Origin: a virus
DNA length: 64,000 bases
IMG/VR virus record: IMGVR_UViG_3300031963_000020
Coordinates: 1-64,000 of that record
Direction: 5' to 3' (one strand)
Part shown: positions 10,467-26,402 of the stretch, piece after piece
How the letters are laid out: the number at the start of each line of letters is the position of its first letter
Position numbering within the stretch: position 1 is the stretch's first letter
Made by a program: the position numbers and the translations under genes
The notes under the pieces: model-generated
What the model saw: only the letters and a program-made list of their open reading frames with translations
The model's database searches: none
Told to the model about the DNA's origin: nothing

Positions 10467-10818
10467 GGGCCTGTCATGGTTTCGACGGGATGTAGATGAC
10501 TAAGCTTTGTATCCAGTTTGGTAATACTGGTGAAACAGACCACAAATTTCAACTGGCAACTCATACAGCCAACCTCTCGCCCTCGCTGCGTAAGCAGTAG
10601 AGCCGAAGGACCGATGACCTGACCCATATAAGGGTAATCGGACTTATCATATGGTGTAGTGTTAGTAACGGGTAGTAGCTAACATCAAACACAACTACCC
10701 TACGTCCGACTTATGTTTGTTCCTTGTCAAGAGGCGGATGAAACTAAACAAGGAACTATGTGCATAAACGCTTAGTAGGAAGCAGTCTCGGACGAGGGTT
10801 CGACTCCCTCCAGGTCCA
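10467..10818 (+). ncRNA. ssrA: tmRNA, tag (A)GNSYSQPLALAA at 10555-10593
   Basis: Acceptor GGGCCTG/CAGGTCC-A with G3.U70, ggtttcgac 5' motif, T-arm gagggTTCGACTccctc, tag ORF ending ALAA-TAA. Confidence 0.95.
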
Positions 10819-10859
10819 TTAAAATTGACGGTTGTGTTAATAATTTGAAGGAGGTAGAG

Positions 10860-11144
10860 ATGTATGTGTTCAAAATTATTCAACGCATCTTCAATCAAAT
10901 ATTTCCTCCTATGTCAGTAGAAACTACAACCTTGTTGTTAGAAGAAGCAGACATAATAATGAAGGAAATAAAAGAAGCAAGAAAGTTGGCAGATTTACTA
11001 AGAATTAAAGAAATTTTAAGAAAGTTTCGTGGTGCAGTAGAACTAGCAGGATCACCAAGAGAAGTAAAACAAAAATTGGTTTTTTTAGAAGCACAGTGGA
11101 ACAGGCAATTTAGACTGTGGAAAGCAAATGGTAATCGGTTCTAA
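10860..11144 (+). CDS. hypothetical protein
   Basis: SD GGAGGT before ATG 10860. Confidence 0.65.
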   Translation: MYVFKIIQRIFNQIFPPMSVETTTLLLEEADIIMKEIKEARKLADLLRIKEILRKFRGAVELAGSPREVKQKLVFLEAQWNRQFRLWKANGNRF

Positions 11145-11763
11145 AGTTTCTAGTAAAAGATATATCTGGTTACGAGTTCCAAGAACGGCAACAGTAGCAT
11201 ACGGAAAGATATTTTTTCCAGACGGAAATTACGAACATACTCATAGTAACTACTTTTATGAAAGAGATAGATACGGTGAACTACCAGCGTTTTCTGTTGT
11301 AAGAAATCCGTATGATAGGTTTGTATCCTCAGTAAAGCACATATATAAACAGCAGTTGGTAAATGGTACATCTGGGAAATACAAGTTCACAATACCATTT
11401 ACCGATACAAAAACACTGTATACCTTTTTTGAAACTAATTTGAAAGTACTACGAGATATAGACAACAACGTAGAACACAAAAGAATTTTTCAAACAGAGG
11501 ATTTAAGTTTTGTAAAGATGTTTTTTAGGTTACAAAAAAATTTTGTAGGGTATTCACAAGTAAAAGTGTTCAAGTACGAAGAGCTAGAGGAATTCAATTA
11601 CTGGATACAAACTGAGTTGGGATTAGACACAGGTAAAGTGAGCATACTTAACAGCTCATCTGAAGAGTTGTCTCATATTAACTTCTCATCGGATGAATTC
11701 AAAGAACTTACATATAAGTTATTTGAAGAAGATTATAAATTTTTTGGTTACGTTCAACATTAA
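11128..11763 (+). CDS. sulfotransferase (Sulfotransfer_2-like)
   Basis: VPRTAT 5'-PSB loop, VRNPYDRFVS 3'-PB motif, KYEEL, D...FGY tail. Confidence 0.8.
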   Translation: MVIGSKVSSKRYIWLRVPRTATVAYGKIFFPDGNYEHTHSNYFYERDRYGELPAFSVVRNPYDRFVSSVKHIYKQQLVNGTSGKYKFTIPFTDTKTLYTFFETNLKVLRDIDNNVEHKRIFQTEDLSFVKMFFRLQKNFVGYSQVKVFKYEELEEFNYWIQTELGLDTGKVSILNSSSEELSHINFSSDEFKELTYKLFEEDYKFFGYVQH

Positions 11764-11775
11764 CTAGGAGGCACT

Positions 11776-11958
11776 ATGGACGAAAATAATATCCCCACGG
11801 GTGAGTTCGTCAGTGAAGGCACTCCCGCAAGACCAGGTGAAGAACACTTACCGGCAGAGTTGAGAACCTATGGTATTATGGACTCTAACGGATATAAGAT
11901 TCTTACAAATATGGGTATTCACGGCGGTGGTGGTATCACTTCAGAAGGCTTCGACTGA
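11776..11958 (+). CDS. hypothetical protein
   Basis: SD GGAGG. Confidence 0.6.
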   Translation: MDENNIPTGEFVSEGTPARPGEEHLPAELRTYGIMDSNGYKILTNMGIHGGGGITSEGFD

Positions 11959-11961
11959 CCC

Positions 11962-12402
11962 ATGTTACGTAATTGGGTAGTCCAGTTTGGACACGCCCCA
12001 GGTGACAGAGCAGGAGATGAACGTGTATCTCCTGAAGATAGAGGAAAGTATATTTCACAAGTAGGCTACTATTTTGGATGGCAACCTCCTCCCGGAATGA
12101 GTTGGATTGTTGAAGTTACCAAAGATTTACACGGTAAGCATCCTGGTAGATACATAGCTTGTTTTATGAGATATATGACAGATGGTGAAGCAGAAAAGAT
12201 GCTTGGAACTAACTACGAAAAGTATCAAGCACCAGTAGTAAAACCAGCGGCAACGCACGAAGAATTCTTACGTGGACAACTAGAAGCAATTCAAAAACAA
12301 CTCACTCAATATGAGCAACAAACTCAAACCACAGAAGTTTCAGAGAATTGTGAAGTATGTCCAATAGAAGAAACAACTAACGAAACACAACCAGAAACGT
12401 AA
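11962..12402 (+). CDS. hypothetical protein
   Basis: ORF track, operon context. Confidence 0.6.
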   Translation: MLRNWVVQFGHAPGDRAGDERVSPEDRGKYISQVGYYFGWQPPPGMSWIVEVTKDLHGKHPGRYIACFMRYMTDGEAEKMLGTNYEKYQAPVVKPAATHEEFLRGQLEAIQKQLTQYEQQTQTTEVSENCEVCPIEETTNETQPET

Positions 12403-12411
12403 GAGGTATGT

Positions 12412-12756
12412 ATGTTAAAGAAAAAGGTTACGAAGTTTACTGGTAGTAAGTTAAATGTGATGGAACGTAAGGCACTTGTTTGTCAAGAGTGCAATATTGT
12501 CACGGTTACGGTAGCAAACGATATCGCTGCCGTAACCTGTGCATATTGCGTACAAAAGTCTATTGAACCACCAAAGTTTTATACACCGAAACCAGAGGGT
12601 GAAAAGTTTCCTCGTGGGTGGCATTTTAAACAACGATATGTGCATACAGATGGTCGTGTGTTCTGTAAAGGTGTAGAAACTGGTGAGACTGATACACCAG
12701 AAGTACCAAAGAAGAAAAAGGTAGTTAAGAAAAAGACACCTAAAAAGAGGAAGTAA
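12412..12756 (+). CDS. zinc-finger protein with Lys-rich tail
   Basis: CQEC...CAYC, PRGWHF motif. Confidence 0.65.
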   Translation: MLKKKVTKFTGSKLNVMERKALVCQECNIVTVTVANDIAAVTCAYCVQKSIEPPKFYTPKPEGEKFPRGWHFKQRYVHTDGRVFCKGVETGETDTPEVPKKKKVVKKKTPKKRK

Positions 12757-13092
12757 ATGTTAAATCTACCATCGAAACCATTTCCAGTAATACAAAAGTT
12801 TTTGCATGAAAACAAACTTGTAGTTTACAAATATTTGGTAAAACAAGTACGAAAGGGTATTCGTGAAGATTTAGATAAAGTAGAACTATTTCAGATTACG
12901 CCGATGCACTCACACCAAAAACACACAGCAGTAGTGAAAAAAGAAGATTATGAAAATGTTTTACAAGATGCGATGAAACAAGCGATTAAAGAAGAAGATT
13001 ATGAAACAGCAGCAAAAGTAAGAGATACAATACAGTTCTACAAAGAAAAAAGTATTACTAAACTCTTAAACGATACAAAACCAGAGGAATAA
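12757..13092 (+). CDS. protein with C-terminal UVR (UvrB/UvrC) motif
   Basis: MKQAIKEEDYETAAKVRD. Confidence 0.65.
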   Translation: MLNLPSKPFPVIQKFLHENKLVVYKYLVKQVRKGIREDLDKVELFQITPMHSHQKHTAVVKKEDYENVLQDAMKQAIKEEDYETAAKVRDTIQFYKEKSITKLLNDTKPEE

Positions 13093-13095
13093 AAT

Positions 13096-13629
13096 ATGGC
13101 TATGGCGTTGGATTCAACTAAATGTGTTGTCCTAAATGCCACGTATGAGCCCATAACAGTTGTGACTTCGAAGCGAGCACTATTGTTATTTTTGGAAGGA
13201 AAAGCTATCATAGTCGAGGAACATCCAGAGTTGGTGGTGCGGTCACCAAGACAGACATTCCCTGTACCATTGATGATTGCGTTAGTACGCTATATCAAGG
13301 GCCGCCGTGTATTTAAGACACCAGCTTTACTCACACAGAAAAACCTATTCGTTCGTGATGCATACACTTGCCAATATTGTAATCGGCATAAGAGTGCGTT
13401 CCGTCCTAGTGAATTTTTGACTCGTGACCACGTACATCCTGTTGCAAAGGGTGGTCAAGACAAGTGGGAAAATGTGGTGACGAGTTGTAGTACCTGTAAC
13501 AATAAGAAAGCAGACAAGTTGTTAGAAATGACTACGATGAAACTGGCAAAACAACCTGTCACACCTACAATTTTTGAGCTGTGGACAAAACAACAGGCAC
13601 GAACTAACCGAGCAATAATGGTTGCATAA
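13096..13629 (+). CDS. HNH endonuclease (McrA-like)
   Basis: VLNATYEP, RDAYTCQYC, TRDHVHP..KGG..WEN.V.SC..CN..K. Confidence 0.9.
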   Translation: MAMALDSTKCVVLNATYEPITVVTSKRALLLFLEGKAIIVEEHPELVVRSPRQTFPVPLMIALVRYIKGRRVFKTPALLTQKNLFVRDAYTCQYCNRHKSAFRPSEFLTRDHVHPVAKGGQDKWENVVTSCSTCNNKKADKLLEMTTMKLAKQPVTPTIFELWTKQQARTNRAIMVA

Positions 13630-13631
13630 CT

Positions 13632-14327
13632 ATGCTGATAACATCTAAAATTGATGATACAAAATGGTTATGGGTCAACGTTCCCAAGACTGCTTCTACG
13701 GCAGTAATGAGAACGTTTTTCCCATTAAAGGAAATAAACGAGCAAGAACATCAAACGTATAATCATTTGATAGACATTCACGGAAGTTTTGATGCTTTCA
13801 CTACTGTTAGAAATCCCATTACACGCTTTAAGTCCGCTCTCAATCACACATTGAATGTTTGTGTATGTGGAAAATGTAAAATATCGGACAGACCTGTTGA
13901 TAAAATAGATATTATACATTTCGTAAGTGATATGCTAAAACTAAAAAGTCAGAAAACAGATTTTTTTAGAGCCGTTTATATGAACGGAGAAAGTGATTAT
14001 CAAATGAATGTCGCTAGAAGTATGGAAAACAGGTTTAGTAAGTATCTTATACCAAGTGGAGTAAATTGTTTACGAATTCCAGCATATGTTTCACAAACAT
14101 TTATATTGAATGGTCCGCAAAATAAATTGCATATATTTAAGTATGAAAACCTACAAGAATTGTCGGAATTCATACAAAATAAATTGGGATATACATTTAA
14201 TAATATTATTTATCGAAAATACACCGATAAATTGGGGGTTGACTTTTTAGACCCTACCCTGTTAGATTTACTCCACGAGCTGTATCGTGAAGATTATGAT
14301 AACTTTAACTACGGGAAACGGTTATGA
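13632..14327 (+). CDS. sulfotransferase (Sulfotransfer_2-like)
   Basis: VPKTAST, VRNPITRFKS, KYENL, Y.ED...FNY. Confidence 0.8.
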   Translation: MLITSKIDDTKWLWVNVPKTASTAVMRTFFPLKEINEQEHQTYNHLIDIHGSFDAFTTVRNPITRFKSALNHTLNVCVCGKCKISDRPVDKIDIIHFVSDMLKLKSQKTDFFRAVYMNGESDYQMNVARSMENRFSKYLIPSGVNCLRIPAYVSQTFILNGPQNKLHIFKYENLQELSEFIQNKLGYTFNNIIYRKYTDKLGVDFLDPTLLDLLHELYREDYDNFNYGKRL

Positions 14328-14947
14328 TGGATTACGAAGAGAAGGCTAAGAAAAACTTGGAAAAGTTCAACGCATTTCTTGCTGACGATCCTCGTGTTGA
14401 AAAGTTGAATGAAATGTACGAAGTTTTCGGTGAACAACTACTTTCCGCACCCGCATCTGGTAAGATTCACTACCACAATGCATTTCCTGGGGGGTATCTC
14501 GATCACGTAGTTCATGTCGCGGAGACTTCTATGAAGGTGGCTACCGCGTATAAGGCTATTGGTGGCGAAATTGACTTCACCAAGCAAGAAATGATTTTTG
14601 CAGCACTTCATCACGACCTTGGAAAGCTCGGTAATGAGACAGGTCCATATTACCTTGACCAAGATAGTGATTGGCATCGTAAGCGCGGTGAAATGTATAC
14701 GTACAATGATAATATTCAGTTTATGACAGTCACAGATAGAGCATTGTATCTTTTACAGAAGTTTGAAGTTCCTATCACAGAAAAGGAATGGTTAGCAATC
14801 AAGATGTCCGATGGTTTGTATGATGATGGAAATAAGCCATACTATAAGCCGTATCAAAAGTATGCGATGAAAACAAATCTTCCGTATGTCATCCATTGGT
14901 CTGACCACATGGCTTGTACGGCAGAACGTGACGCAGGAATGTTTTAA
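14324..14947 (+). CDS. HD-domain phosphohydrolase (YhaM-like HD domain)
   Basis: APAS...YHNAFPGGY.DH, HHDLGK, final D. Confidence 0.8.
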   Translation: MMDYEEKAKKNLEKFNAFLADDPRVEKLNEMYEVFGEQLLSAPASGKIHYHNAFPGGYLDHVVHVAETSMKVATAYKAIGGEIDFTKQEMIFAALHHDLGKLGNETGPYYLDQDSDWHRKRGEMYTYNDNIQFMTVTDRALYLLQKFEVPITEKEWLAIKMSDGLYDDGNKPYYKPYQKYAMKTNLPYVIHWSDHMACTAERDAGMF

Positions 14948-14955
14948 TAGTTGAT

Positions 14956-15037
14956 GCACTTGTGGCGGAATTGGGAGACGCACCAGCCTTAGGAGCTGGC
15001 GCCGTGAGGCGTGTGGGTTCGACCCCCACCGAGTGCA
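14956..15037 (+). tRNA. tRNA-Leu(UAG)
   Basis: GCACTTG/CGAGTGC-A; ccagc-ctTAGga-gctgg; long variable arm. Confidence 0.93.
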
Positions 15038-15042
15038 TTTGT

Positions 15043-15116
15043 GGTGATTGTAGCTCAGCTGGCAGAGCAGCGGATTGTGGTTCCGCGGGTCGCGGGTTCG
15101 AGCCCCGTCAGTCACC
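15043..15116 (+). tRNA. tRNA-His(GUG) with encoded G-1
   Basis: gcgga-ttGTGgt-tccgc; G-1:C73. Confidence 0.93.
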
Positions 15117-15137
15117 CGTACAAAAAGGAGAATTGTT

Positions 15138-15323
15138 ATGGCAAAACAAAAAATAAATGAAAATTGGAATGTCCAGTATTATTCACGTGATTCTCAATCA
15201 AACGAAGATATTTTAAATTTAAATATGTCGTGGGAAAATCGTGATATTGATGGAGTGAAGAAAAATTTAAATATCTGGTTGTCTGCAATAGGCATACCAC
15301 TCCAAGTGACAGATAAAAAGTAA
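15138..15323 (+). CDS. hypothetical protein
   Basis: SD AGGAG; start moved downstream of tRNA-His. Confidence 0.65.
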   Translation: MAKQKINENWNVQYYSRDSQSNEDILNLNMSWENRDIDGVKKNLNIWLSAIGIPLQVTDKK

Positions 15324-15325
15324 TC

Positions 15326-15398
15326 GCTGACATAGCTCAGTTGGTAGAGCACCACTTTGGTAAAGTGGAGGTCACCAGTTCAATCCTGGTTGTCAGCT
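15326..15398 (+). tRNA. tRNA-Thr(GGU)
   Basis: GCTGACA/TGTCAGC; ccact-ttGGTaa-agtgg. Confidence 0.93.
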
Positions 15399-15400
15399 CT

Positions 15401-15474
15401 GCCTCAATAGCTCAACTGGATAGAGCACCTGACTTCGGATCAGGGGGTTGTGGGTTCGAATCCTTCTTGGGGCG
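15401..15474 (+). tRNA. tRNA-Arg(UCG)
   Basis: cctga-ctTCGga-tcagg; one T-stem mismatch. Confidence 0.9.
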
Positions 15475-15478
15475 TTAT

Positions 15479-15552
15479 ACCCGCGTAGCTCAGTTGGATA
15501 GAGCAACAGCCTTCTAAGCTGTGGGTCAGAGGTTCGAATCCTCTCGCGGGTG
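15479..15552 (+). tRNA. tRNA-Arg(UCU)
   Basis: ACCCGCG/CGCGGGT; acagc-ctTCTaa-gctgt. Confidence 0.93.
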
Positions 15553-15570
15553 CTAATCTATGGAGGTTGT

Positions 15571-16176
15571 ATGTCGTATCCGTTGACAACAAGAGTACAT
15601 AGTATAAAAAAGGACATGCTTCCTTACACATTTATTGATGATGTATTTACAAACGAAGAATTAAACCAAGTAATAAATTATTGTAATACTTTAAGTTTGG
15701 GTGATGCAACGGTAGGTGAAGGACGAATTGCACCAAACTATAGAAAGTCTAAAGTAAACCAGTTTAAGGTAAATAATCAAAATAATTGGATATTTGATAG
15801 ATTACAAACAGCGGCAACTTATGTAAATAACGAATTTTTTAGATTTGACTTGATTGGATTTGACAAAATTCAATACACAGAGTACAGAGATCAAAATGAT
15901 TTATATGATTTTCACGTAGATTGTTGGATGGGCGAGAATACACCAGCTGACCATATGTTTCCGAGAAAGTTATCGTGCAGTCTCATACTGTCAGATTCAA
16001 ACGAATATGAAGGTGGTCAGTTTGAAGTTATGTACACCAAACAACCAGAAGAAGTAAAACAAATAAAAAATAGACTAATTACATTTCCGTCATACATGCT
16101 ACATAGAGTAAAACCAGTAGTAAAAGGAACACGTAAATCATTAGTATTTTGGGTCATTGGCCCTAAATTTAAATAA
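15571..16176 (+). CDS. 2OG-Fe(II) oxygenase (PKHD/prolyl-hydroxylase-like)
   Basis: HVD...RKLS...YEGG...FPS...HRVKPV..G.R.SLV.W. Confidence 0.9.
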   Translation: MSYPLTTRVHSIKKDMLPYTFIDDVFTNEELNQVINYCNTLSLGDATVGEGRIAPNYRKSKVNQFKVNNQNNWIFDRLQTAATYVNNEFFRFDLIGFDKIQYTEYRDQNDLYDFHVDCWMGENTPADHMFPRKLSCSLILSDSNEYEGGQFEVMYTKQPEEVKQIKNRLITFPSYMLHRVKPVVKGTRKSLVFWVIGPKFK

Positions 16177-16262
16177 GGTGCGATGGCCGAGAGGCTGAAG
16201 GCACGGGTCTGCAAAACCCTTGGACTAAACATCCCGCGTCAGTTCGAATCTGACTCGCACCT
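16177..16262 (+). tRNA. tRNA-Cys(GCA) with 17-nt variable region
   Basis: GGTGCGA/TCGCACC-U73; gggt-ctGCAaa-accc; variable region tggactaaacatcccgc. Confidence 0.85.
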
Positions 16263-16278
16263 CTTTTCAGGAGAAACT

Positions 16279-16443
16279 ATGACAAGACTAACACCAGAAA
16301 TTGTAAAGAATACAATTGTTACGGTTATTTGTGTTCTCACCATAGTTATGTTAGCCACCGCACTGATAGTTGGTGAAGTTAACAAACCAGAAGTGCTACA
16401 AGGTGGTGATATTCAACACGCTATGGAGACAGGACAATTTTAA
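16279..16443 (+). CDS. small membrane protein
   Basis: SD AGGAG; one TM. Confidence 0.6.
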   Translation: MTRLTPEIVKNTIVTVICVLTIVMLATALIVGEVNKPEVLQGGDIQHAMETGQF

Positions 16444-16724
16444 TGAAGAAACTTTTATTTACGAAACCGATTACATTGTCGGACACCGCAGAACATAGAA
16501 TTCATACTCGTAAGTGGTGGGCGATACTGATTTTGGTTGTAGGTGGTTTATTGTTAGCAGGACGAGTACCCGTCCCGATGTCGTTAAGTTATACTTTACT
16601 GTTCTTCGGTCATGCTGGAATGTTGCATAGTTTCTGGGAGAAACGAGATTATCCTATGGTTATCGTCAACCTTGTTTGGCTTGGTGTTGATGCCTTAGGA
16701 TTCATACGATGGTGGAATATGTAA
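16443..16724 (+). CDS. multi-TM membrane protein
   Basis: Three hydrophobic helices. Confidence 0.65.
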   Translation: MKKLLFTKPITLSDTAEHRIHTRKWWAILILVVGGLLLAGRVPVPMSLSYTLLFFGHAGMLHSFWEKRDYPMVIVNLVWLGVDALGFIRWWNM

Positions 16725-16727
16725 CAA

Positions 16728-17153
16728 ATGACAAGACAATGTGGAAGTTGTACCAAATGTTGTGATGGTTGGTTAACCGCCGATGTATACGGACACAAAA
16801 TGGAACCAGGCAAACCCTGTCCATTTGTTGGTGACCATAAATGTACAATATACAATAAGCGACCACAATTATGTAGTGATTTTAAGTGTGGGTGGTTAAA
16901 AGATGATGGAACCTTGTTTGATGAATGGCTGCGTCCTAACAATACTAATGTTATATTCGTTCATTTCAAAATTGATGATATCGTGTGGTATCGTTTGGCC
17001 GAAGCAGGTGCAAAAGTAAACACAATACTGTTAAGTTATATAATTCAAATATTTACAAAAAATAATGTAAATTTAGAATATTGGATAAACGGAGCGCAGT
17101 TTCTTATAGGTACGCAAAAGTTCAAAGACTTGGTTAAAACACACCACAACTAA
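16728..17153 (+). CDS. CxxCxxCC (YkgJ-like) metal-binding protein
   Basis: CGSCTKCC, CPF, C.IY..RP..C..F.C. Confidence 0.8.
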   Translation: MTRQCGSCTKCCDGWLTADVYGHKMEPGKPCPFVGDHKCTIYNKRPQLCSDFKCGWLKDDGTLFDEWLRPNNTNVIFVHFKIDDIVWYRLAEAGAKVNTILLSYIIQIFTKNNVNLEYWINGAQFLIGTQKFKDLVKTHHN

Positions 17154-17162
17154 TTTGTAAAC

Positions 17163-17236
17163 GGCAGGGTAGCTCAGTTGGTGAGAGCGCACGACTCATA
17201 ATCGTGAGGTCGAGGGTTCGAATCCCTCCCCCGCTA
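17163..17236 (+). tRNA. tRNA-Met(CAU), elongator type (Ile2 not excluded)
   Basis: cacga-ctCATaa-tcgtg; no C1:A72 mismatch or 3 G-C anticodon pairs. Confidence 0.85.
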
Positions 17237-17251
17237 TAACACGGAGAATGT

Positions 17252-17512: not shown

Positions 17513-17515
17513 TAT

Positions 17516-17589: not shown

Positions 17590-17593
17590 CTTT

Positions 17594-17666: not shown

Positions 17667-17669
17667 TAC

Positions 17670-19162: not shown

Positions 19163-19165
19163 GTT

Positions 19166-20287
19166 GTGAAGCTATTATTTTTATCCGCATGTGGAAAAAC
19201 AAAAGAAGCAGAAGATAATGGATATATCAATTTGTATCTTGCATCACTGAAACAATATATCGTTCCACATTTCGATGTGAAAGTTATTTTGTTTAACAAC
19301 GCACTTAATCAAAACTCCAGCGAAAGTCAAACATTTCAACGAGTAAAAGAGTTTGGGTTGGAACATATAGTAGAAGTAAAGAATATGTACGAAATGGGAC
19401 TACCACAGGAATCTGTAAACTTTCTTGATAATTTGCATTGGTTTGGTAAAATTGGTATCAATATGAATATGTTATTCGATTATGCCAAGATGAATAATTT
19501 TTTTGATGCGGATTGGGTTTTCCACTTCGATACAGATTTAGAGTTTTTACCAAACTTTAAAGATGTGTTAATGAGTATTGATGAAGTTAGAAAAGTAAAT
19601 AATGAAGTTATGATAACAGCTGGTGGTGACACCTACCCATACAATATACGATACAAGGATACAGAATTTATTTTCGATGAACCATCACGAATAAATATTT
19701 ATGATGCATCCACTCTTAGCCATCACTTTAATTTACGCAAGCTGAAGGTTAATAAACGCAATGAGGGATCAGACACATCCGCCTATATGAACAACGAAAG
19801 GTTGGTATTCAACCTACAGCAACAAAAAATACGTAATGATTTTGTTGGGTACTCCAAAGACGCTGCAAGGTCTAATTTATTTAATTGGATTGGTTGTCAC
19901 TATTCAAGTAACTTTGAGGCTCTCGGACATTTGAAAGACGATGAAGAAGCAAAGTATTTACAACAACTGTGGGAAGAAAAGGGAAGTCCAAATCTTCAAC
20001 TTACAATAAGTCACGATAAGGGTTCGTTACCACAATTTTTCTTACAAGGATCAAGTCATAACGTAATAAAAATACAAGTTCGTGGATATTCGGATATGGC
20101 TAAACATTTTAGTTCCGGGTATTATGAGGAAACACCATACAGAAAATATTCAGAACAACGATTGAAAGAACATTACACCGACACACAACACATCTGGGAA
20201 AAAGATTATTTGACAAAAGAAGAAATAGAATCTAGAATTTTTAATTTACAAAACGAAATCCAACGATTACAACAAATGTTAAATTAG
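19166..20287 (+). CDS. putative GT-A-like glycosyltransferase / hypothetical
   Basis: 'L.SL' and hydrophobic strand followed by DxD (HFDTD). Confidence 0.45.
   Translation: MKLLFLSACGKTKEAEDNGYINLYLASLKQYIVPHFDVKVILFNNALNQNSSESQTFQRVKEFGLEHIVEVKNMYEMGLPQESVNFLDNLHWFGKIGINMNMLFDYAKMNNFFDADWVFHFDTDLEFLPNFKDVLMSIDEVRKVNNEVMITAGGDTYPYNIRYKDTEFIFDEPSRINIYDASTLSHHFNLRKLKVNKRNEGSDTSAYMNNERLVFNLQQQKIRNDFVGYSKDAARSNLFNWIGCHYSSNFEALGHLKDDEEAKYLQQLWEEKGSPNLQLTISHDKGSLPQFFLQGSSHNVIKIQVRGYSDMAKHFSSGYYEETPYRKYSEQRLKEHYTDTQHIWEKDYLTKEEIESRIFNLQNEIQRLQQMLN
20210..20238 (+). promoter_or_regulatory. sigma70-like promoter within 3' end of CDS
   Basis: TTGACA-N17-TAGAAT upstream of tRNA-Ser(ACU). Confidence 0.6.
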
Positions 20288-20293
20288 CAGTAG

Positions 20294-20378
20294 GGACAGT
20301 TGGCTGAGTGGTCTAAAGCAGGAGATTACTAATCTCTCGTACCGAAAGGTACCGTGGGTTCGAATCCTACACTGTCCG
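20294..20378 (+). tRNA. tRNA-Ser(ACU)
   Basis: GGACAGT/ACTGTCC-G73; ggaga-ttACTaa-tctct; long variable arm gtacc-gaaa-ggtac. Confidence 0.88.
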
Positions 20379-20396
20379 TTTTAAATGGAGTATACA

Positions 20397-20507
20397 ATGG
20401 CTACACATAAAAGAAAAGGACATACTAGAAAACCAAGAAAATCTTGGCAAGCTAGTATAAAAGTAAAATCAACAACTGTTAAAAATCCGCGTAGAAAACG
20501 TAAATAA
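20397..20507 (+). CDS. 36-aa highly basic peptide (not in ORF track)
   Basis: SD GGAG; MATHKRKGHTRKPRKSWQASIKVKSTTVKNPRRKRK. Confidence 0.55.
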   Translation: MATHKRKGHTRKPRKSWQASIKVKSTTVKNPRRKRK

Positions 20508-20529
20508 TTAGTATTTATTTAGATGGGGG

Positions 20530-20558
20530 TTGACAATTAGCAGTCCCCTAGTTATATT
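20530..20558 (+). promoter_or_regulatory. sigma70-like promoter
   Basis: TTGACA-N17-TATATT upstream of tRNA-Lys(UUU). Confidence 0.7.
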
Positions 20559-20575
20559 ACTGGTGTAGGGTAAAC

Positions 20576-20649
20576 GCCTCCATAACTCAATTGGTCAGAG
20601 TAGCTGGCTTTTAACCAGTAAGTTCTAGGTTCGAGTCCTAGTGGGGGCA
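20576..20649 (+). tRNA. tRNA-Lys(UUU)
   Basis: gctgg-ctTTTaa-ccagt. Confidence 0.92.
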
Positions 20650-20669
20650 CTGTTGATTAAAAATTGAAA

Positions 20670-20868
20670 GTTAGTTGTAGAGCTTATCCGCGGTAGGAAA
20701 ACCCCGCGCTACACGATTTAAGCGACCCTTACGTGAGACACCACTACAACGGTGCAGGGGAAGTTTCCGTAAGTAGTAGTCCTCGTATGTAGACAAACGT
20801 TCGGTGAGGATGGCACCAACGATGATAGATAAGTTCTTCTCTATAAAATGAGAGGATACTATAACAAC
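20670..20868 (+). ncRNA. candidate structured ncRNA, family unassigned
   Basis: GC-elevated non-coding gap between tRNAs with nested helices gttgtag/ctataac, gagcttatc/gataagttc, cttacg/cgtaag, tcctc/gagga. Confidence 0.55.
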
Positions 20869-20878
20869 TCATCCATAC

Positions 20879-20961
20879 GCCCTGGTGGTGGAATGGTATA
20901 CACAGCAGACTTAAAATCTGCCGGCCTCACGGTCTTGCGAGTTCGAGTCTCGCCCTGGGCA
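20879..20961 (+). tRNA. tRNA-Leu(UAA)
   Basis: gcaga-ctTAAaa-tctgc; long variable arm. Confidence 0.92.
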
Positions 20962-20980
20962 TTAGTCTGTAGGAGAATGT

Positions 20981-21145
20981 ATGATTAAGTATTTAGTAAA
21001 GATATATTTTGAAGGTGGTGTAACATCCTTCACATATTACGCAGCAGAAGCAACCGAGGCTATTACACAGTTTCGTAATGACCCAGATGCACAAAAGTTG
21101 TTAGAAGGAAAAGTATTGACGCATTATGAAGTAGGACCTGTTTGA
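20981..21145 (+). CDS. 54-aa hypothetical protein (not in ORF track)
   Basis: SD AGGAG; MIKYLVKIYFEGG... Confidence 0.6.
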   Translation: MIKYLVKIYFEGGVTSFTYYAAEATEAITQFRNDPDAQKLLEGKVLTHYEVGPV

Positions 21146-21150
21146 TAGTT

Positions 21151-21222
21151 GCGGGTGTAGCTCAGTGGTAGAGTCCGTGCTTGCCAAGCACGTTGTCGTG
21201 GGTTCGAATCCCATCGCCCGCT
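21151..21222 (+). tRNA. tRNA-Gly(GCC)
   Basis: cgtgc-ttGCCaa-gcacg; U73. Confidence 0.92.
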
Positions 21223-21234
21223 CTTGGAGAATTT

Positions 21235-21804
21235 ATGTTTGATATGTTTAATAGAGTAATCTCACAACGAGGTTACACAAGATACCTAGAAATCGGTGTT
21301 AGTAATGGTGGAACATTCTACAACATAGAATGTCAAGTAAAGCATGGTGTGGATCCTAATAATAAGGATATGCTTTACCCCATTACATCCGATGAGTTTT
21401 TTGAAAACTGTAATCAAACATATGATATAGTTTTTATTGATGGTGACCACGAGTGTAATCAAGTCTTACGAGACATTGATAATAGTATTAAACACTTGTC
21501 ACCAAATGGTATTATCTTTATTCACGATACAAAGCCGCACACGGAGTTGATGCAACAATCACCGATGCCCAACAATCTTTGTGAAAGAGGATTGTGGACT
21601 GGTGATGTGTGGAAAGCTATCGCAAAGTTTAGAAACACAAGAAAAGATTTTACAGTTAGAACATTTGACATAGAACTTGGATTGACTATATTAGAACGTG
21701 GTGAGGGAACGCTGATAGAAATACCAGATGAACTCACTTATGATTGGTACTTGACAAATCAAGATTATGTGTTAAATTTAATTCCGTACAATACGGGCCT
21801 GTAG
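21235..21804 (+). CDS. class I SAM-dependent methyltransferase (Methyltransf_24-like)
   Basis: YLEIGV..G, GVDP, YDIVFIDGDH, L.PNG.I..HD. Confidence 0.85.
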   Translation: MFDMFNRVISQRGYTRYLEIGVSNGGTFYNIECQVKHGVDPNNKDMLYPITSDEFFENCNQTYDIVFIDGDHECNQVLRDIDNSIKHLSPNGIIFIHDTKPHTELMQQSPMPNNLCERGLWTGDVWKAIAKFRNTRKDFTVRTFDIELGLTILERGEGTLIEIPDELTYDWYLTNQDYVLNLIPYNTGL

Positions 21805-21867
21805 CTCAGCTGGGAGAGCGCCTGATTTGCATTCAGGAGGTCATCGGTTCGATCCCGTTCAGGTCCA
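21795..21867 (+). tRNA. tRNA-Ala(UGC)
   Basis: G3.U70; cctga-ttTGCat-tcagg. Confidence 0.94.
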
Positions 21868-21872
21868 TAGTT

Positions 21873-21946
21873 GGGTGGTTAGCTCAGTTGGTTAGAGCAT
21901 CTCGTTTACACCGAGAGGGTCGGGGGTTCGAGTCCCTCACTACCCA
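21873..21946 (+). tRNA. tRNA-Val(UAC)
   Basis: tctcg-ttTACac-cgaga. Confidence 0.93.
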
Positions 21947-21966
21947 TTTACCATAAGGAGGTTATT

Positions 21967-22191
21967 ATGAAAGCACGTGTAGTTGAAATGTTACGAACAC
22001 AAGCGGAAGCAGAACGCCAGAAGGCGTTACTTTCACTCGAATTGTTGATGGATTATTCCGCTGGTATTGGTGACCATTCCACCGGCGATTTTTATAAGAA
22101 CGCAGAAGAAGCATTACAAATGCTTGTTGATGCAGACGATAAGTTAGAAGCTCTTGACCGTTACTTTGGTGGTGACGTAATCGCAGAATAA
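21967..22191 (+). CDS. hypothetical helical phage protein
   Basis: SD AGGAGG; GIGDH motif. Confidence 0.7.
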   Translation: MKARVVEMLRTQAEAERQKALLSLELLMDYSAGIGDHSTGDFYKNAEEALQMLVDADDKLEALDRYFGGDVIAE

Positions 22192-22199
22192 AAGTAGTC

Positions 22200-22271
22200 G
22201 CGGGTGTCGTATAACGGCTATTACCCCAGCCTTCCAAGCTGGTGACGAGGGTTCGACTCCCTCTACCCGCT
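22200..22271 (+). tRNA. tRNA-Gly(UCC)
   Basis: ccagc-ctTCCaa-gctgg; U73. Confidence 0.93.
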
Positions 22272-22275
22272 CTTT

Positions 22276-22359
22276 GCTCTTGTGACGGAACCGGCAGACG
22301 TAGCGGACTCAAAATCCGCCGCCCTCAAAGGCGTGTGGGTTCGACTCCCACCGAGAGCA
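22276..22359 (+). tRNA. tRNA-Leu(CAA)
   Basis: gcgga-ctCAAaa-tccgc; long variable arm. Confidence 0.93.
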
Positions 22360-22362
22360 TAA

Positions 22363-22435
22363 CGGGGAGTAGCTCAGTTGGTAGAGTGCACGCTTTGGGA
22401 GCGTGATGTCGCAGGTTCGAGTCCTGTCTCCCCGA
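22363..22435 (+). tRNA. tRNA-Pro(UGG)
   Basis: C1:G72; cacgc-ttTGGga-gcgtg. Confidence 0.93.
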
Positions 22436-22451
22436 CTAACAAGGAGAATAT

Positions 22452-22772
22452 ATGAAAGTGGTAGAAGAATATTTTGATGCATTCGTCAATAAAGATTTAA
22501 TAAGACTATCAGAACTTTATAGTGATGATATTGTCTTATCTGAATGGGATGAAAATGTTTTCGCTGGTAAAGAAGCCGTATTACAAGCCAACGCAGATTT
22601 ATTCAATAAGTTTGAGAAAATTGGTATACTTGTAAAAGCACGTGGAGAAAGTGGAAATATTTCATTAAACGAAATAATCGTAAATCTAGACGATGTATCA
22701 GTAAAAGTGGTTGATAGCATAACTGTTGTAGATGAAAAAATAGTTTATATAATGGCATATCGTGGATTCTAA
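22452..22772 (+). CDS. SnoaL/NTF2-like protein
   Basis: YFDAF..KD...L..LYSDD...GKEAV pattern. Confidence 0.75.
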   Translation: MKVVEEYFDAFVNKDLIRLSELYSDDIVLSEWDENVFAGKEAVLQANADLFNKFEKIGILVKARGESGNISLNEIIVNLDDVSVKVVDSITVVDEKIVYIMAYRGF

Positions 22773-22831
22773 TACCAAAAAGATATTTATATTGTAATAC
22801 GGTTCTGTAAATTTACACAAGAGAAAAATAT

Positions 22832-23524
22832 ATGAAATATGCAGTTTTTTCAACTTACAGAACAGCTAGTACTCTTATGCATGAAATAATAAGAAATCAT
22901 TTCAGCATAACAGATTTGGGTGAGTTAACAGGTCATATTCCTGCCGATAAGAGAAGTGATGAAACACTTCGTCACGGATGGTTAGCTGAACAACTAGCTT
23001 TAGAAGATTACGTTGTAAAATTATTTTCATATGATTTTACAATCTCTGGATATTATTTTAATAGATCAACTTTTGATTGGTCTATATTTGATAAAATAGT
23101 ACTTAGTACAAGAGCAAATGTAACTGACCAAATGTGCAGTGTCTATTATATGAAACCATGGTTACCACCGTCTGACCAAACACATCCGTTTCCAGCAGAC
23201 CCTACACCAGAAGCTATAGATTTTACAAATGCGGGTTGGAATGCTCAACTTGAAAGACAAAGAAATGGACTACTCAGATTTCACGAAATAAAAACTGAAT
23301 TGTTAAATAATTTTCCAACAAAAGTCTGTATTGTCCCATCAGAAATATTTAGTGATCCACAAGAAACTTACTTACCAATATTAAATTCATTGACTGGTAT
23401 AGAATTTATTGCATCTGACTTTTCACCTATATCACCAAACACAACTGGATTAAATTATAGAGAAAAGTATACAAACTATGATGACTTAAAGTACATCACA
23501 GATTCTTGGGGATTGCCAACATAA
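22832..23524 (+). CDS. P-loop sulfotransferase-like protein
   Basis: FSTYRTAST loop, R.N..DQ..S motif; paralog of next gene. Confidence 0.55.
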   Translation: MKYAVFSTYRTASTLMHEIIRNHFSITDLGELTGHIPADKRSDETLRHGWLAEQLALEDYVVKLFSYDFTISGYYFNRSTFDWSIFDKIVLSTRANVTDQMCSVYYMKPWLPPSDQTHPFPADPTPEAIDFTNAGWNAQLERQRNGLLRFHEIKTELLNNFPTKVCIVPSEIFSDPQETYLPILNSLTGIEFIASDFSPISPNTTGLNYREKYTNYDDLKYITDSWGLPT

Positions 23525-23543
23525 GTTAGTGTGAAGATTACGT

Positions 23544-24179
23544 ATGAGAGTAGCAGTATTTTCTACACCAAGAACTTGTAGTAGTTTGATGTGTTATATA
23601 ACATCACGAAGATTTGAAATACACAATCATCGTGAAGATGTGTATACACATTTTACACAAGGAATGCAAGAAGAAAAACTTGAATTCTTAAAAACAACAG
23701 ATGGTTATGTTGTTAAATTATTTTCTAGATATTTTCATAATGATAGAAATATAAGACTGAACGATATGAACTGGAATATGTTTGACTACGTTTTTATTAC
23801 TGAACGAGTCAATTTGGTAGACCAGATGGCTAGTTTGTATCGTAGAATTTATGAAAACACAACATATATAAATTTACAAAGTAGTGAAGTATTAGAATTT
23901 TATTTACAACATAAAGAATATCTCAAACTGTTCTACAATATAAAGACGGATATACTATCTTTACATAAGAATGCATATGTAGTAACATATGAAGGGTTAC
24001 AAAATAATCCAATAAAATATTTAAATTCTGTAACAAATTTAAATTTTATAGATAGTAATATTCCACTACCAAAAGTATTTCCTGCTGTTACTCAAACCTT
24101 AATAGATTATAAACAATATTTTACAAATTATAATGAGTTAAAATTATTTGTAGAGTCTTGGAATTTAATAAAAGATTAA
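23544..24179 (+). CDS. P-loop sulfotransferase-like protein
   Basis: FSTPRTCSS loop, R.N..DQ..S, YE.L; shares YVVKLFS and TNY..LK...SW with previous gene. Confidence 0.55.
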   Translation: MRVAVFSTPRTCSSLMCYITSRRFEIHNHREDVYTHFTQGMQEEKLEFLKTTDGYVVKLFSRYFHNDRNIRLNDMNWNMFDYVFITERVNLVDQMASLYRRIYENTTYINLQSSEVLEFYLQHKEYLKLFYNIKTDILSLHKNAYVVTYEGLQNNPIKYLNSVTNLNFIDSNIPLPKVFPAVTQTLIDYKQYFTNYNELKLFVESWNLIKD

Positions 24180-24188
24180 TGTTGGGGC

Positions 24189-24217
24189 TTGACAAACTCA
24201 ACTACCGATGTTAGATT
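24189..24217 (+). promoter_or_regulatory. sigma70-like promoter
   Basis: TTGACA-N17-TAGATT upstream of tRNA-Glu. Confidence 0.7.
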
Positions 24218-24234
24218 ACTAGTATAATGGTTAC

Positions 24235-24306
24235 GCCGCGTTCGTCTATCGGTTAGGACATAGCCCTTTCAAGGCTAGAAGGCGGGTTCGATTCCCGCAC
24301 GCGGTA
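24235..24306 (+). tRNA. tRNA-Glu(UUC)
   Basis: tagcc-ctTTCaa-ggcta. Confidence 0.92.
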
Positions 24307-24323
24307 TGAGTCAAAGGTATTAC

Positions 24324-24397
24324 CCGCGAGTAGCTAAATGGTGAAGGCAGCGGTCTTATATACCGAAGATATGGGGGTTCAAGTCCCTCCTCGCGGA
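24324..24397 (+). tRNA. tRNA-Ile(UAU)
   Basis: CCGCGAG/CTCGCGG-A; cggt-ctTATat-accg; T-arm gggggTTCAAGTccctc. Confidence 0.8.
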
Positions 24398-24418
24398 CTG
24401 CTTAATTAGGAGATTTAA

Positions 24419-24511
24419 ATGCCACATCCAAAAAAGTGCGGAAAGGGTCGTCGTAAGATTGGCTCAAAGAAACGCAACAATCGTTGGAAAAATAGAAAGC
24501 GTAAACATTAG
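24419..24511 (+). CDS. 30-aa basic peptide, bS22/mS38 (COX24-domain)-like (not in ORF track)
   Basis: SD AGGAG; MPHPKKCGKGRRKIGSKKRNNRWKNRKRKH. Confidence 0.5.
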   Translation: MPHPKKCGKGRRKIGSKKRNNRWKNRKRKH

Positions 24512-24740
24512 TACTATCCGAGGCCTTTTCCCTACCTTTCACCTCGTTAACAGCCTTCGGGCGAATGGAAAGACATAATAAAATTTGATAGGGCGGGTTC
24601 TAGGGTCGTGAGGCCTAGAGACTTTTTGGCTCGTTTAGTTTTGATAAACAAGCAGGCGGTTCGGGGAAGTTCGACGGAATGATGTGTCCGCCTATATAAT
24701 GTTGACAAGAAAGCTGATATCTTTCAACACATCCCCCGTA
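24512..24740 (+). ncRNA. candidate structured ncRNA, family unassigned
   Basis: Non-coding; hairpins cgagg/cctcg, gcc-UUCG-ggc, tctagg/cctaga, gttta/taaac, aggcgg/ccgcct, tgttga/tcaaca. Confidence 0.5.
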
Positions 24741-24741
24741 T

Positions 24742-24812
24742 TGCCCTCTCGTTCAATGGCAGGACATCAGACTTTGGATCTGATTATCGTGGTTCGAATC
24801 CACGGGGGGCAA
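24742..24812 (+). tRNA. tRNA-Gln(UUG)
   Basis: U1:A72; tcaga-ctTTGga-tctga. Confidence 0.92.
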
Positions 24813-24852
24813 CTTGGTTATGTTAAACTTTAATCCATTATGGAGCGTACAA

Positions 24853-25047
24853 ATGTACAAGTTCATTCTCGCAGTAGCAGTAATCGGTCTTTCGGCATGT
24901 GCAGCAAAGGAAGAAGTTCAAGGTGAAGTTGCAGCAGATTCAACCGCAGTAGTAGCACCAGTTGTTGCAGATTCAACCAAGATTGATACTGATTCAATCA
25001 AGTCACCAGAAGTAAAGCCAGTAGTAGAAGGTGAAGCAGCAAAGTAA
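24853..25047 (+). CDS. small lipoprotein
   Basis: Lipobox LSAC; repeated ADST motif. Confidence 0.7.
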   Translation: MYKFILAVAVIGLSACAAKEEVQGEVAADSTAVVAPVVADSTKIDTDSIKSPEVKPVVEGEAAK

Positions 25048-25055
25048 TAATATAC

Positions 25056-25128
25056 GCGGTCTTAGTGTAACGTCAGCACGGTAAGCTTCCAGCTTACAAG
25101 AGCAGTTCAACTCTGTCAGACCGCTCCA
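25056..25128 (+). tRNA. atypical second tRNA-Gly(UCC)-like gene with encoded CCA
   Basis: GCGGTCT/AGACCGC-U-CCA; no D-loop GG; gtaagct-TCC-agcttac; weak T-stem. Confidence 0.7.
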
Positions 25129-25131
25129 CTT

Positions 25132-25220
25132 TGTAAGAACAATCCCGTGCGAGGTGTGGCGCACTCGTTGTGGTGGCGGGAAGAGTAGTATTAACTACTT
25201 GAAAGGGATCTGTTCTTACA
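25132..25220 (+). ncRNA. candidate 89-nt structured ncRNA
   Basis: Perfect 10-bp terminal helix tgtaagaaca/tgttcttaca plus atccc/gggat; internal hairpins gtgcg/cgcac and agtagt/actact. Confidence 0.55.
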
Positions 25221-25231
25221 TTTATTTTTCT

Positions 25232-25316
25232 GGACAGGTGGCAGAGTGGTCTATTGCAACGGTCTTGAAAACCGTCGAGCTGAGAGGCTCCGAGAGTTCG
25301 AATCCCTCCCTGTCCG
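25232..25316 (+). tRNA. tRNA-Ser(UGA)
   Basis: acggt-ctTGAaa-accgt; long variable arm; G73. Confidence 0.92.
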
Positions 25317-25331
25317 CTTAATGAGGTTATT

Positions 25332-25532
25332 ATGATACACGAATTTAAAACACCGTTCGATGTAAAAACTCCGCATGGAGATGGCCGAGCAATCTTATTG
25401 ATTGATTATGGTATTGATGTAAATACTGTTTGGGTCGTTAAACTTGACGGTGGAATCGTGAAGCATTACTATTCGGATGATATTCGTATTTACGACAACC
25501 CTATGAATGGTAAGGGTTGGAACGTAGAATAA
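25332..25532 (+). CDS. hypothetical protein
   Basis: SD GAGGT; TP.G.G.A...IDYG motif. Confidence 0.7.
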   Translation: MIHEFKTPFDVKTPHGDGRAILLIDYGIDVNTVWVVKLDGGIVKHYYSDDIRIYDNPMNGKGWNVE

Positions 25533-25541
25533 TAAATATCT

Positions 25542-25613
25542 GCCACAATAGCTCAGCGGTAGAGCACTCGATTTGTAATCGAGCGGTCGTCGGTTCAATC
25601 CCGACTTGTGGCT
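25542..25613 (+). tRNA. tRNA-Thr(UGU)
   Basis: ctcga-ttTGTaa-tcgag. Confidence 0.93.
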
Positions 25614-25720
25614 CTTAAAACAACATAATCTAGATATTTATATAGGACTCGCACCGCAGTGGTGGAGTCCTTTTCACCGTATCGCTCATTATGAGGATAC
25701 ACAATATAGGAGGTCATTTT

Positions 25721-26200
25721 ATGACTCATTTAGTATTTCGCCCATTTGGGTCAACGGTTTTGAACAATCGGGACAATTTCATCAGTACATTTGATAAAAT
25801 GTTTGATGAATTCGCCAGAAAAGATTTCCCTGAGTTTTTTCAACACTTTGGGGCAGAACCTTTTGGAAAGGCAGCATATCCAAAGGTTAATGTGATTACA
25901 AATGACGAGACTGTAGTTATTGAAGCAGAACTCGCTGGTTATAAGAAGGATGAAATTGATATTGAGGTCAAGGAAGGTGTCTTGACCATTTCAGGCGGTG
26001 CGTCACAATTGAACGAGCAAACTGATAAAGTAGTTTATCTTCTACGAGAACTGAAGCGTAGCTCATTCTCTCGATCCTTTAAGCTCGGTGACCAATTGGA
26101 TGCTTCCGAAGTAGATGCAAAGTTTGATAATGGGTTACTTACAATCACAATCCAAAAATTACAAAAGGAGCCAGAGTCGAAAAAGGTTACGATTAAGTAA
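25721..26200 (+). CDS. small heat-shock protein (Hsp20/alpha-crystallin)
   Basis: YPKVNV, ELAG..K..I.I, LTISG, F.RSF.L, A.F.NGLLTI; SD GGAGG. Confidence 0.92.
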   Translation: MTHLVFRPFGSTVLNNRDNFISTFDKMFDEFARKDFPEFFQHFGAEPFGKAAYPKVNVITNDETVVIEAELAGYKKDEIDIEVKEGVLTISGGASQLNEQTDKVVYLLRELKRSSFSRSFKLGDQLDASEVDAKFDNGLLTITIQKLQKEPESKKVTIK

Positions 26201-26223
26201 TAACACTCAACGCAGGAGAGTAT

Positions 26224-26304
26224 ATGTGCAGTTGTAATAGTGGTGTCTGTACGTGTGGCACCGGATGTACTTGCAGTTGTTGCTTAACCCATATAACCGA
26301 TTAA
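26224..26304 (+). CDS. 26-aa Cys-rich metallothionein-like peptide (not in ORF track)
   Basis: SD AGGAG; MCSCNSGVCTCGTGCTCSCCLTHITD, 8 Cys in CxC clusters. Confidence 0.6.
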   Translation: MCSCNSGVCTCGTGCTCSCCLTHITD

Positions 26305-26363
26305 CTAGGAGGTGATCCTTATCGGTTATGTTTGACTCAAAAACCTAAAGCAATGGAGATAAC

Positions 26364-26402
26364 AAAACGGGTCGGGCTCACAAGGTTCGACCCGTTTTCT
26401 TT
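26364..26402 (+). terminator. intrinsic terminator
   Basis: aaaacgggtcgggc-tcacaag-gttcgacccgtttt followed by T-rich tract. Confidence 0.8.

Follow-up and report, generated by a model that had tools for sequence, protein, structure and literature searches.

Three conserved structured RNA families between the tRNA genes of an uncultured freshwater myovirus

We analysed the first 64 kb of the IMG/VR virus record IMGVR_UViG_3300031963_000020 (148,340 bp, estimated completeness 72%), a stretch hereafter called the window, in which a 16-kb island (10467-26402) combines a transfer-messenger RNA (tmRNA) gene with a long array of transfer RNA (tRNA) genes and small open reading frames (ORFs). The window carries baseplate and SbcCD-type genes, and the island belongs to an uncultured freshwater myovirus. 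Three gaps between tRNA genes of this array, here G1, G2 and G3, hold three conserved, structured non-coding RNA families that have no match in Rfam. The original prediction, made from the letters of this DNA, had pointed to the same gaps as parts of a larger system for translation. The features that bear on these RNAs are as follows.

14955-25614, plus strand: array of 29 tRNA genes, among which lie small ORFs and the three RNAs (called with ARAGORN and Rfam; order kept in relatives)
20397-20507, plus strand: lysine- and arginine-rich (K/R-rich) ORF of 36 amino acids (aa) from a conserved ATG; a 40-aa form starts at 20385
20530-20558, plus strand: sigma-70-type promoter TTGACA-17-TATATT for tRNA-Lys(UUU), G1 and tRNA-Leu(UAA)
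20674-20878, plus strand: G1 RNA, about 200 nucleotides (nt), multi-helix, ending at the 5' end of tRNA-Leu(UAA); model R2
24419-24511, plus strand: 30-aa basic ORF (MPHPKKCGKGRRKIGSKKRNNRWKNRKRKH) with an AGGAG Shine-Dalgarno (SD) sequence; 16 of 30 residues K or R
24512-24741, plus strand: G2 RNA, between the stop of the 30-aa ORF and tRNA-Gln
25056-25128, plus strand: second tRNA-Gly(UCC), atypical, with encoded CCA (41.7 bits), always before G3
25129-25231, plus strand: G3 RNA, three hairpins enclosed by an interrupted closing helix of 13 bp (25132-25220), ending at tRNA-Ser(UGA); model R1

All three gaps (G1, 20651-20878; G2, 24512-24741; G3, 25129-25231) are free of ORFs, and each RNA abuts the 5' end of a tRNA in every copy. 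An Rfam 15 scan of the gaps at E<=10 matched no family to G1, G2 or G3; the sole row in G2 was RT-3 at chance level (15.9 bits against a cut-off of 40.5, E=5.8), and an sX4 row (E=0.0033) sits on tRNA-Ser and clips only 25224-25231 of G3. Searching each gap by BLASTN in distant mode against 50,697 phage records gave no match either. Single-sequence fold z-scores (G1, -1.78; G2, +0.33; G3, -3.86) back G3 alone, so that the case rests on conservation and covariation among relatives, which revealed compensatory changes in each of the three gaps. The Rfam scan, homologue search and covariation analysis that had been proposed as checks thus returned no known family and a conserved structure, and the gaps stood as structured non-coding elements. 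A 9-mer common to G1 and G2 (GGGGAAGTT) was dismissed because it is not kept in relatives.

Relatives were retrieved as ten IMG/VR contigs via the 373-aa protein of a neighbouring gene (19166-20287), one contig via a G3 pattern, two via a G2 pattern, and 12 further metagenome contigs via a G1 DNA pattern; their tRNA arrays are mostly colinear with that of the window. Megablast of the whole 16 kb against the same phage records gave single-tRNA matches only and no close relative, and among cultured phages the nearest are Microcystis phage Mel-JY01 and Flavobacterium phage immuto, with 38-40% identity in the baseplate wedge protein only. The phage lineage is widespread in freshwater and is found nearly whole in 14 or more metagenome runs from ten or more studies, which contain 93-96% of the sampled sequence words of 19000-26400.

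G1 was found in 18 distinct copies, 17 of them in alignment A10 and a divergent one in the relative G001 (95.6 bits with model R2), and it is single-copy per genome. Its 3' end is exactly the 5' end of tRNA-Leu(UAA) in 18 of 18 copies, and tRNA-Lys(UUU) lies upstream in most. Mean column identity of G1 is 84-86% in relatives whose neighbouring 373-aa protein is only 54-57% identical. Across eight sequences, 96% of cells were paired and 14 of 56 pairs showed compensatory changes against 0-3 in slid controls; with the divergent copy added, the count was 13 of 44 against 1-3. The fold includes a pseudoknot, PK1, in which GUUGUAG (20674-20680) pairs with the internal hairpin loop CUACAAC (20744-20750), and this pairing is 100% intact in five of five diverged sequences, with two double changes in G001 (GUUAUGG:CCAUAAC). 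A second, 3' copy of CUACAAC was considered as the partner of the 5' GUUGUAG and rejected: four of 18 copies lack it, and it is the loop copy that covaries; since the loop pairing is both kept and covarying, PK1 is the conserved pairing. A candidate second pseudoknot would join the loop GGAUG (20808-20812) to the tail CAUCC (20870-20874) in 17 of 17 aligned copies, an invariance that leaves covariation no purchase on it. With model R2, G1 is absent from phages Mel-JY01 and immuto, and patterns for G1 and for the 5' domain of G2 had no match in 185,579 prokaryote genomes, so that nothing points to a host as their source.

Alternatively, G1 might be a catalyst, for example a ribozyme that liberates its 5' end by self-cleavage, or a helper in the maturation of tRNA-Leu. 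In favour of this, its fold is nested and pseudoknotted, and the joining regions and loops are invariant. The nucleotide before the first paired G varies (A, G, C or U) and the next seven are fixed, as is seen at cleavage sites in 5'-cleaving ribozymes, and G1 comes first in its transcript in contig L042. Against this, no ribozyme of the hepatitis delta virus-like, hatchet, pistol, twister or RNase P types matched at E<=10, no catalytic motif was identified, and a length of about 200 nt is far above that of known small self-cleavers; we consider a catalytic G1 very unlikely.

The surroundings of G1 vary among relatives. In the G001 lineage a perfect TTGACA-17-TATATT promoter lies directly before G1 with no intervening tRNA-Lys (L042, 1622-1650), and a divergent homologue of the 36-aa ORF (MTIRKSHSRK...KKKRK; L042, 1729-1839, minus strand) follows tRNA-Ser(ACU) and precedes the G1 promoter. 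The 36-aa ORF is accessory, as roughly half of the relatives with G1 lack it, and the only database match of its 40-aa form is one hypothetical protein, 90% identical.

The second RNA, G2, is of a different build. Its 5' domain of about 75 nt has some three variable positions among seven sequences, plus an A/U spacer of variable length (indels) before the closing strand, and it is nearly invariant while synonymous sites of the adjacent 30-aa ORF do vary. Possible pseudoknots occur in this domain, and covarying hairpins follow it (9 of 47 pairs compensatory). The last 40 nt or so of G2 overlap a TTGACG-18-TATAAT-like promoter and the leader for tRNA-Gln. The unit of 30-aa ORF, about 230 nt and tRNA-Gln recurs in two contigs with another tRNA order, and the clade of L008, L009 and L012 retains the ORF along with G1 and G3, with the G2 5' domain replaced by other hairpins.

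In every relative whose contig reaches the site, the 30-aa ORF itself retains 27-30 of its 30 residues, and compared with the distant clade it has 13-14 synonymous and 2-3 non-synonymous codon differences; judged by these codon comparisons, it is a genuine gene on which purifying selection acts strongly. Both of the K/R-rich ORFs that the original prediction had singled out are conserved in relatives, the 30-aa one under strong constraint. Neither peptide had a family or structure match in Pfam, NCBIfam, PDB chains (E<=10 for the 30-aa peptide) or 1.8 billion representative proteins. The neighbours of the 30-aa peptide in a protein atlas, at 0.86-0.88, were eL41 and COX24_C/mS38 (COX24_C at 0.86), a compositional likeness below the tool's own evidence level. 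The two basic peptides were also compared as paralogues, and no relation between them was detectable.

Within the 5' domain of G2 lies the invariant stretch UCACCUCGUUA (24539-24549), which matches the usual 3' end of 16S ribosomal RNA (rRNA) at 10 of 11 positions, and which pairs with an SD-like CGAGG. A match of this type is expected about once by chance per window, and it is missing from the L008 clade; we treat the 16S-like stretch as a weak lead only. One could imagine G2 and the 30-aa peptide as a very abundant phage ribonucleoprotein that imitates the ribosomal SD/anti-SD region by means of UCACCUCGUUA and the GAGG:CCUC helix of the 5' domain, and so draws a host factor off the ribosomes, for example a ribonuclease of a defence system or a protein of ribosome maturation or hibernation; G1 would then be a separate RNA, protein-binding or catalytic. 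We hold this scenario as a whole to be most improbable.

G3, the shortest of the three, occurs in eight distinct copies, always between the atypical tRNA-Gly(UCC) and tRNA-Ser(UGA). It folds as a cloverleaf-like four-way junction that includes a 'D-like' arm of 4 bp and 8 nt, with a U-rich tail after the helix, and 6 of 29 pairs were compensatory against none in slid controls, in an alignment that was fitted to the model. The tRNA-Gly before it has an odd D-loop, and its counterpart in relative L003 (about 15580-15654), which ARAGORN does not call, carries G33 and the T-loop UGCAACU. By its sequence this second tRNA-Gly looks non-decoding, and it always travels with G3. One hairpin of G3 (GAGUAG...AACUACUU) resembles a hairpin of phage T4 rnaC, a local likeness that we judged coincidental.

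The shape of G3 and its constant place behind a CCA-encoding tRNA-Gly(UCC) that is degenerate in L003 invite the idea that the two are a decayed or repurposed tRNA duplicate, a mimic that serves a tRNA-binding enzyme or an anticodon nuclease as decoy or substrate, and T4 rnaC too has a tRNA-type T arm. G3, however, shows neither a T-loop nor an anticodon loop of 7 nt, was matched neither by ARAGORN nor by the Rfam tRNA family RF00005, its 13-bp closing helix is unlike an acceptor stem, and model R1 misses T4 rnaC, so that a tRNA mimic seems to us very unlikely.

To see which of these elements accumulate as RNA, we placed contigs from four freshwater or riverine metatranscriptomes (X15 to X18, from four studies) on positions 10000-27500, where several strain variants of the phage are visible. 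Contigs of phage ORFs were sparse, 150-470 nt long and at depths of 2-5, and tmRNA contigs stood at depths of 15-134; tRNA depths are confounded by other organisms. G2 contigs (24525-24698 and beyond), also in several strain variants, reached depths of about 400-470 in X15 and X17 and 65 in X18, which is some 100-fold above the neighbouring messenger RNA (mRNA) contigs and in one run above the tmRNA; the X18 contig begins 14 nt past the ORF stop. G1 was covered at about 27-30 in X17 and 5-10 in X18, with one contig bridging G1 and tRNA-Leu. RNA from G2, and more weakly from G1, accumulates in these assemblies.

These data also bear on whether the gaps merely act in cis within the tRNA operons, as structured leaders or spacers that guide or time the cuts of RNase P or RNase E, as stabilisers in the 3' untranslated region of the peptide mRNA, or as terminator and promoter hairpins, with no function after release. 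Each element abuts a tRNA 5' end; G2 directly follows an ORF stop, has a hairpin and U-run in the region of 24594-24622 and a conserved TTGACG-18-TATAAT-like site, and its 5' domain is exchangeable between clades; and a U-rich tail follows the G3 helix. A plain spacer, however, needs neither a fold of about 200 nt nor a covarying pseudoknot nor invariant loops, and with 1-10 nt between most tRNAs of the array no spacer is required at all. The roughly 100-fold excess of G2 over neighbouring mRNA contigs and the X18 contig that starts beyond the ORF likewise speak against it. We therefore see a purely cis-acting role as unlikely, if the least unlikely of the alternatives.

In and just before the island lie further features, of which the original prediction had drawn all but the promoter into the same system.

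10410-10438, plus strand: promoter TTGACA-17-TATATT upstream of the tmRNA
10467-10821, plus strand: tmRNA (Rfam RF00023, scoring 122.7 bits where the cut-off is 47 and covering model positions 1-374; also called by ARAGORN)
14324-14947, plus strand: HD-domain-like phosphohydrolase of 207 aa just upstream of the first tRNA, a weak assignment
25691-26200, plus strand: Hsp20/alpha-crystallin (Pfam PF00011, 9.8e-21), a neighbour of the RNA genes

The 122.7-bit tmRNA and the 29 tRNAs, all on the plus strand and serving all 20 amino acids, bear out the predicted tmRNA and full tRNA set. The tag frame of the tmRNA (10555-10593) translates to GNSYSQPLALAA*, ending in a hydrophobic ...LAA degradation signal; this frame rules out the tag peptide that ARAGORN gave for the window as a mis-call, and in relative L032 the ARAGORN tag is identical to GNSYSQPLALAA. 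Tags among other relatives include GNYTLALAA, GNTQLALAA and GNNQLALAA. Hsp20 was likewise confirmed by its Pfam match. The putatively YhaM-like HD protein gave only a weak HD signal (PHROG metal-dependent phosphohydrolase, 1.2e-9; Pfam HD at E=0.01, below the cut-off). Other genes of the island encode an HNH endonuclease, two sulfotransferase-like proteins and a 2OG-Fe(II) oxygenase.

Spacing between the tRNAs is mostly 1-10 nt. The sole tRNA-Met(CAU) (17163-17236) is without the GGG/CCC anticodon stem and has an A4-C69 mismatch in its acceptor stem; three G-C pairs in the anticodon stem are the textbook mark of an initiator tRNA-Met, so this tRNA is elongator-like and no initiator is evident in the array. 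Its counterpart in the distant clade (L009) has the very same sequence (100% identity), and relatives have two or three CAU tRNAs. Other peculiarities of the array are a tRNA-Ser (20294-20378) whose anticodon is ACU (A34), not GCU, kept in all relatives examined including the divergent G001, and a tRNA-Cys(GCA) (16177-16263) of 87 nt with a long variable arm, which measures 83-88 nt in most relatives. We also tried the gap at 15118-15325, which lies between tRNA-His and tRNA-Thr, as a further RNA and rejected it, since it contains an ORF of about 56 aa with an AAGGAG SD sequence. This ORF is swapped for an unrelated small ORF in L002 (5553-5772) and L023 (794-1014) and is missing in L001; going by this comparison, micro-genes inside the array appear to be exchanged in a cassette-like manner.

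Near-consensus sigma-70 promoters (11 of 12 positions matching) lie at 10410-10438, 17918-17946, 20210-20238, 20530-20558 and 21665-21692, all on the plus strand, and these five precede the tmRNA or groups of tRNAs. Together with the strong AGGAG sites, they argue for a host with E. coli-type promoters and Shine-Dalgarno initiation.

Did these parts form one system? The original prediction had read the tmRNA, tRNAs, RNAs, peptides, HD protein and Hsp20 as co-processed parts of a system that rebuilds or protects translation. Spelled out further, such a system could, for example, have the peptides as mimics of ribosomal proteins such as bS22, a protein that binds the 30S subunit between h44 and h45, and the RNAs as ribosome-binding factors. 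All elements do lie on one strand within 16 kb, the 30-aa peptide shares the size and charge of bS22 and has eL41 and COX24_C/mS38 as atlas neighbours, and UCACCUCGUUA in G2 resembles the usual 16S 3' end. The atlas scores are below evidence level, however, and the UCACCUCGUUA match is expected by chance and missing in the L008 clade, while searches of Pfam, NCBIfam and PDB chains, among which the solved ribosomes should be represented, gave the peptides no detectable similarity to a ribosomal protein. The cassettes are distributed independently; G001 carries G1 as well as the G2 cassette, with no G3 match in its 40-kb fragment. Moreover, the 148-kb record, at 72% completeness, yielded neither SmpB (PF01668), nor Ro60/TROVE, nor a CCA-adding enzyme, and unrelated HNH, sulfotransferase-like and oxygenase genes are interspersed. 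Because cassette combinations vary and SmpB, Ro60 and the CCA-adding enzyme are absent from the record, the reading as one system is unsupported, and we consider it improbable. Of the claim that the gaps yield tRNA-processed RNAs, the structured RNAs and their abutment to tRNAs stood and release is plausible; the single co-processed system found no support.

With no SmpB in the record, the phage must use that of its host, although the protein is no part of what defines a tmRNA. We infer that the phage supplies RNAs only and relies on the host for SmpB, for the CCA-adding enzyme and, by extension, for other host factors that lay outside the search. The island is thus an RNA-only supplement dependent on host factors, together with independent passenger cassettes.

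We lean towards an overall reading of G1-G3 as small stable RNAs, each independent of the others and cut out of a tRNA operon, in the manner of RNAC and RNAD of phage T4. The parts of this reading differ in strength. That the three are real structured RNA genes in independent cassettes is very probable, and their release as stable RNAs through tRNA processing, a step suggested by their exact abutment to tRNA 5' ends, is fairly probable. Each RNA would be transcribed from sigma-70-type promoters within a tRNA operon, RNase P of the host would make its 3' end by cutting where the next tRNA begins, and its 5' end could come from tRNA 3' processing, from an RNase E-type cut in an A/U-rich linker, or from the transcript start. 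On this reading G1 would be a compact, pseudoknotted RNA of about 200 nt bound to tRNA-Leu(UAA), G2 a mobile cassette with the 30-aa R/K-rich peptide gene and tRNA-Gln that accumulates to very high levels, and G3 a tRNA-shaped four-way junction paired with the atypical tRNA-Gly. That the RNAs then act in trans by binding proteins, not by pairing with mRNA, is possible but doubtful; the 30-aa peptide might be the likeliest partner of G2, and the likely target might be a host RNA-handling, translation or anti-phage factor.

Several points weigh against this reading of stable, excised, trans-acting RNAs. Action in trans and the nature of the target are conjecture throughout. The relatives all belong to one phage lineage, and there are hence few independent covariation events. 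The metatranscriptome data are assembled contigs, which carry neither transcript ends nor strand nor proof of processing, and in them G3 appears only at depths of 3-5 in contigs that also span the flanking tRNAs. For G2, the fold energy is no better than that of shuffles (z=+0.33), the 3' part overlaps the promoter-like site and may thus in part be cis-acting, and the replacement of the 5' domain in the L008 clade, where the peptide persists, weakens the notion of an obligatory pair with the peptide. One of the four RNA runs, X16, has the phage and no G2 contig, although stretches without RNA contigs, this one included, are no evidence of absence.

Comparison with known systems places G1-G3 closest to hand beside T4 RNAC (species 1, 139 nt) and RNAD (species 2, 119 nt), which are likewise same-strand, structured non-tRNA RNAs abutting tRNAs, are annotated as rnaC and rnaD next to tRNA-Arg, and are transcribed with the tRNAs with function unknown (PMC3014915). 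The folds differ: T4 rnaC has a tRNA-type T arm, G1 is larger and pseudoknotted, and the G3 model R1, the only one of our models run against T4, had no match in the T4 tRNA region. Unlike RNAC and RNAD, G2 is coupled to a conserved 30-aa ORF, and the array around our RNAs comprises 29 tRNAs plus a tmRNA.

Larger phage RNAs offer a second comparison. Weinberg and colleagues reportedly described, in 2017, ornate phage-borne RNAs with complex folds of unknown function, often beside tRNA genes. GOLLD, ROOL and Drum (Rfam RF01998, RF03087 and RF02958) measure 400-800 nt as against 100-230 nt for G1-G3, and G1-G3 matched no Rfam family at E<=10. In size (about 190-230 nt) and high abundance G2 is also like 6S RNA, yet 6S RNA is a long irregular rod whose central bubble resembles an open promoter, whereas G2 is a string of hairpins with possible pseudoknots and matches no 6S family. 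As for the peptide, Flavobacterium johnsoniae bS22 has 30 aa and a pI of 12.7 (PMC7797042), a length and extreme basic charge shared by the product of the 30-aa ORF; no sequence similarity to bS22 or mS38 was detectable, and the idea of a bS22 mimic came from size and charge alone.

The attractive idea of a 'translation autonomy' module is corrected by these results, being unsupported, and what takes its place is a set of non-tRNA passengers. Given how widespread the phage lineage is, these RNAs are ecologically common, and they offer handles on the role of such passengers, be it counter-defence, control of RNA processing or action on the ribosome. G1-G3 are new examples of a known but unexplained class, the RNAs within phage tRNA clusters, and they add three new families with covariation-supported folds to the tRNA-cluster RNAs of the T4 type.

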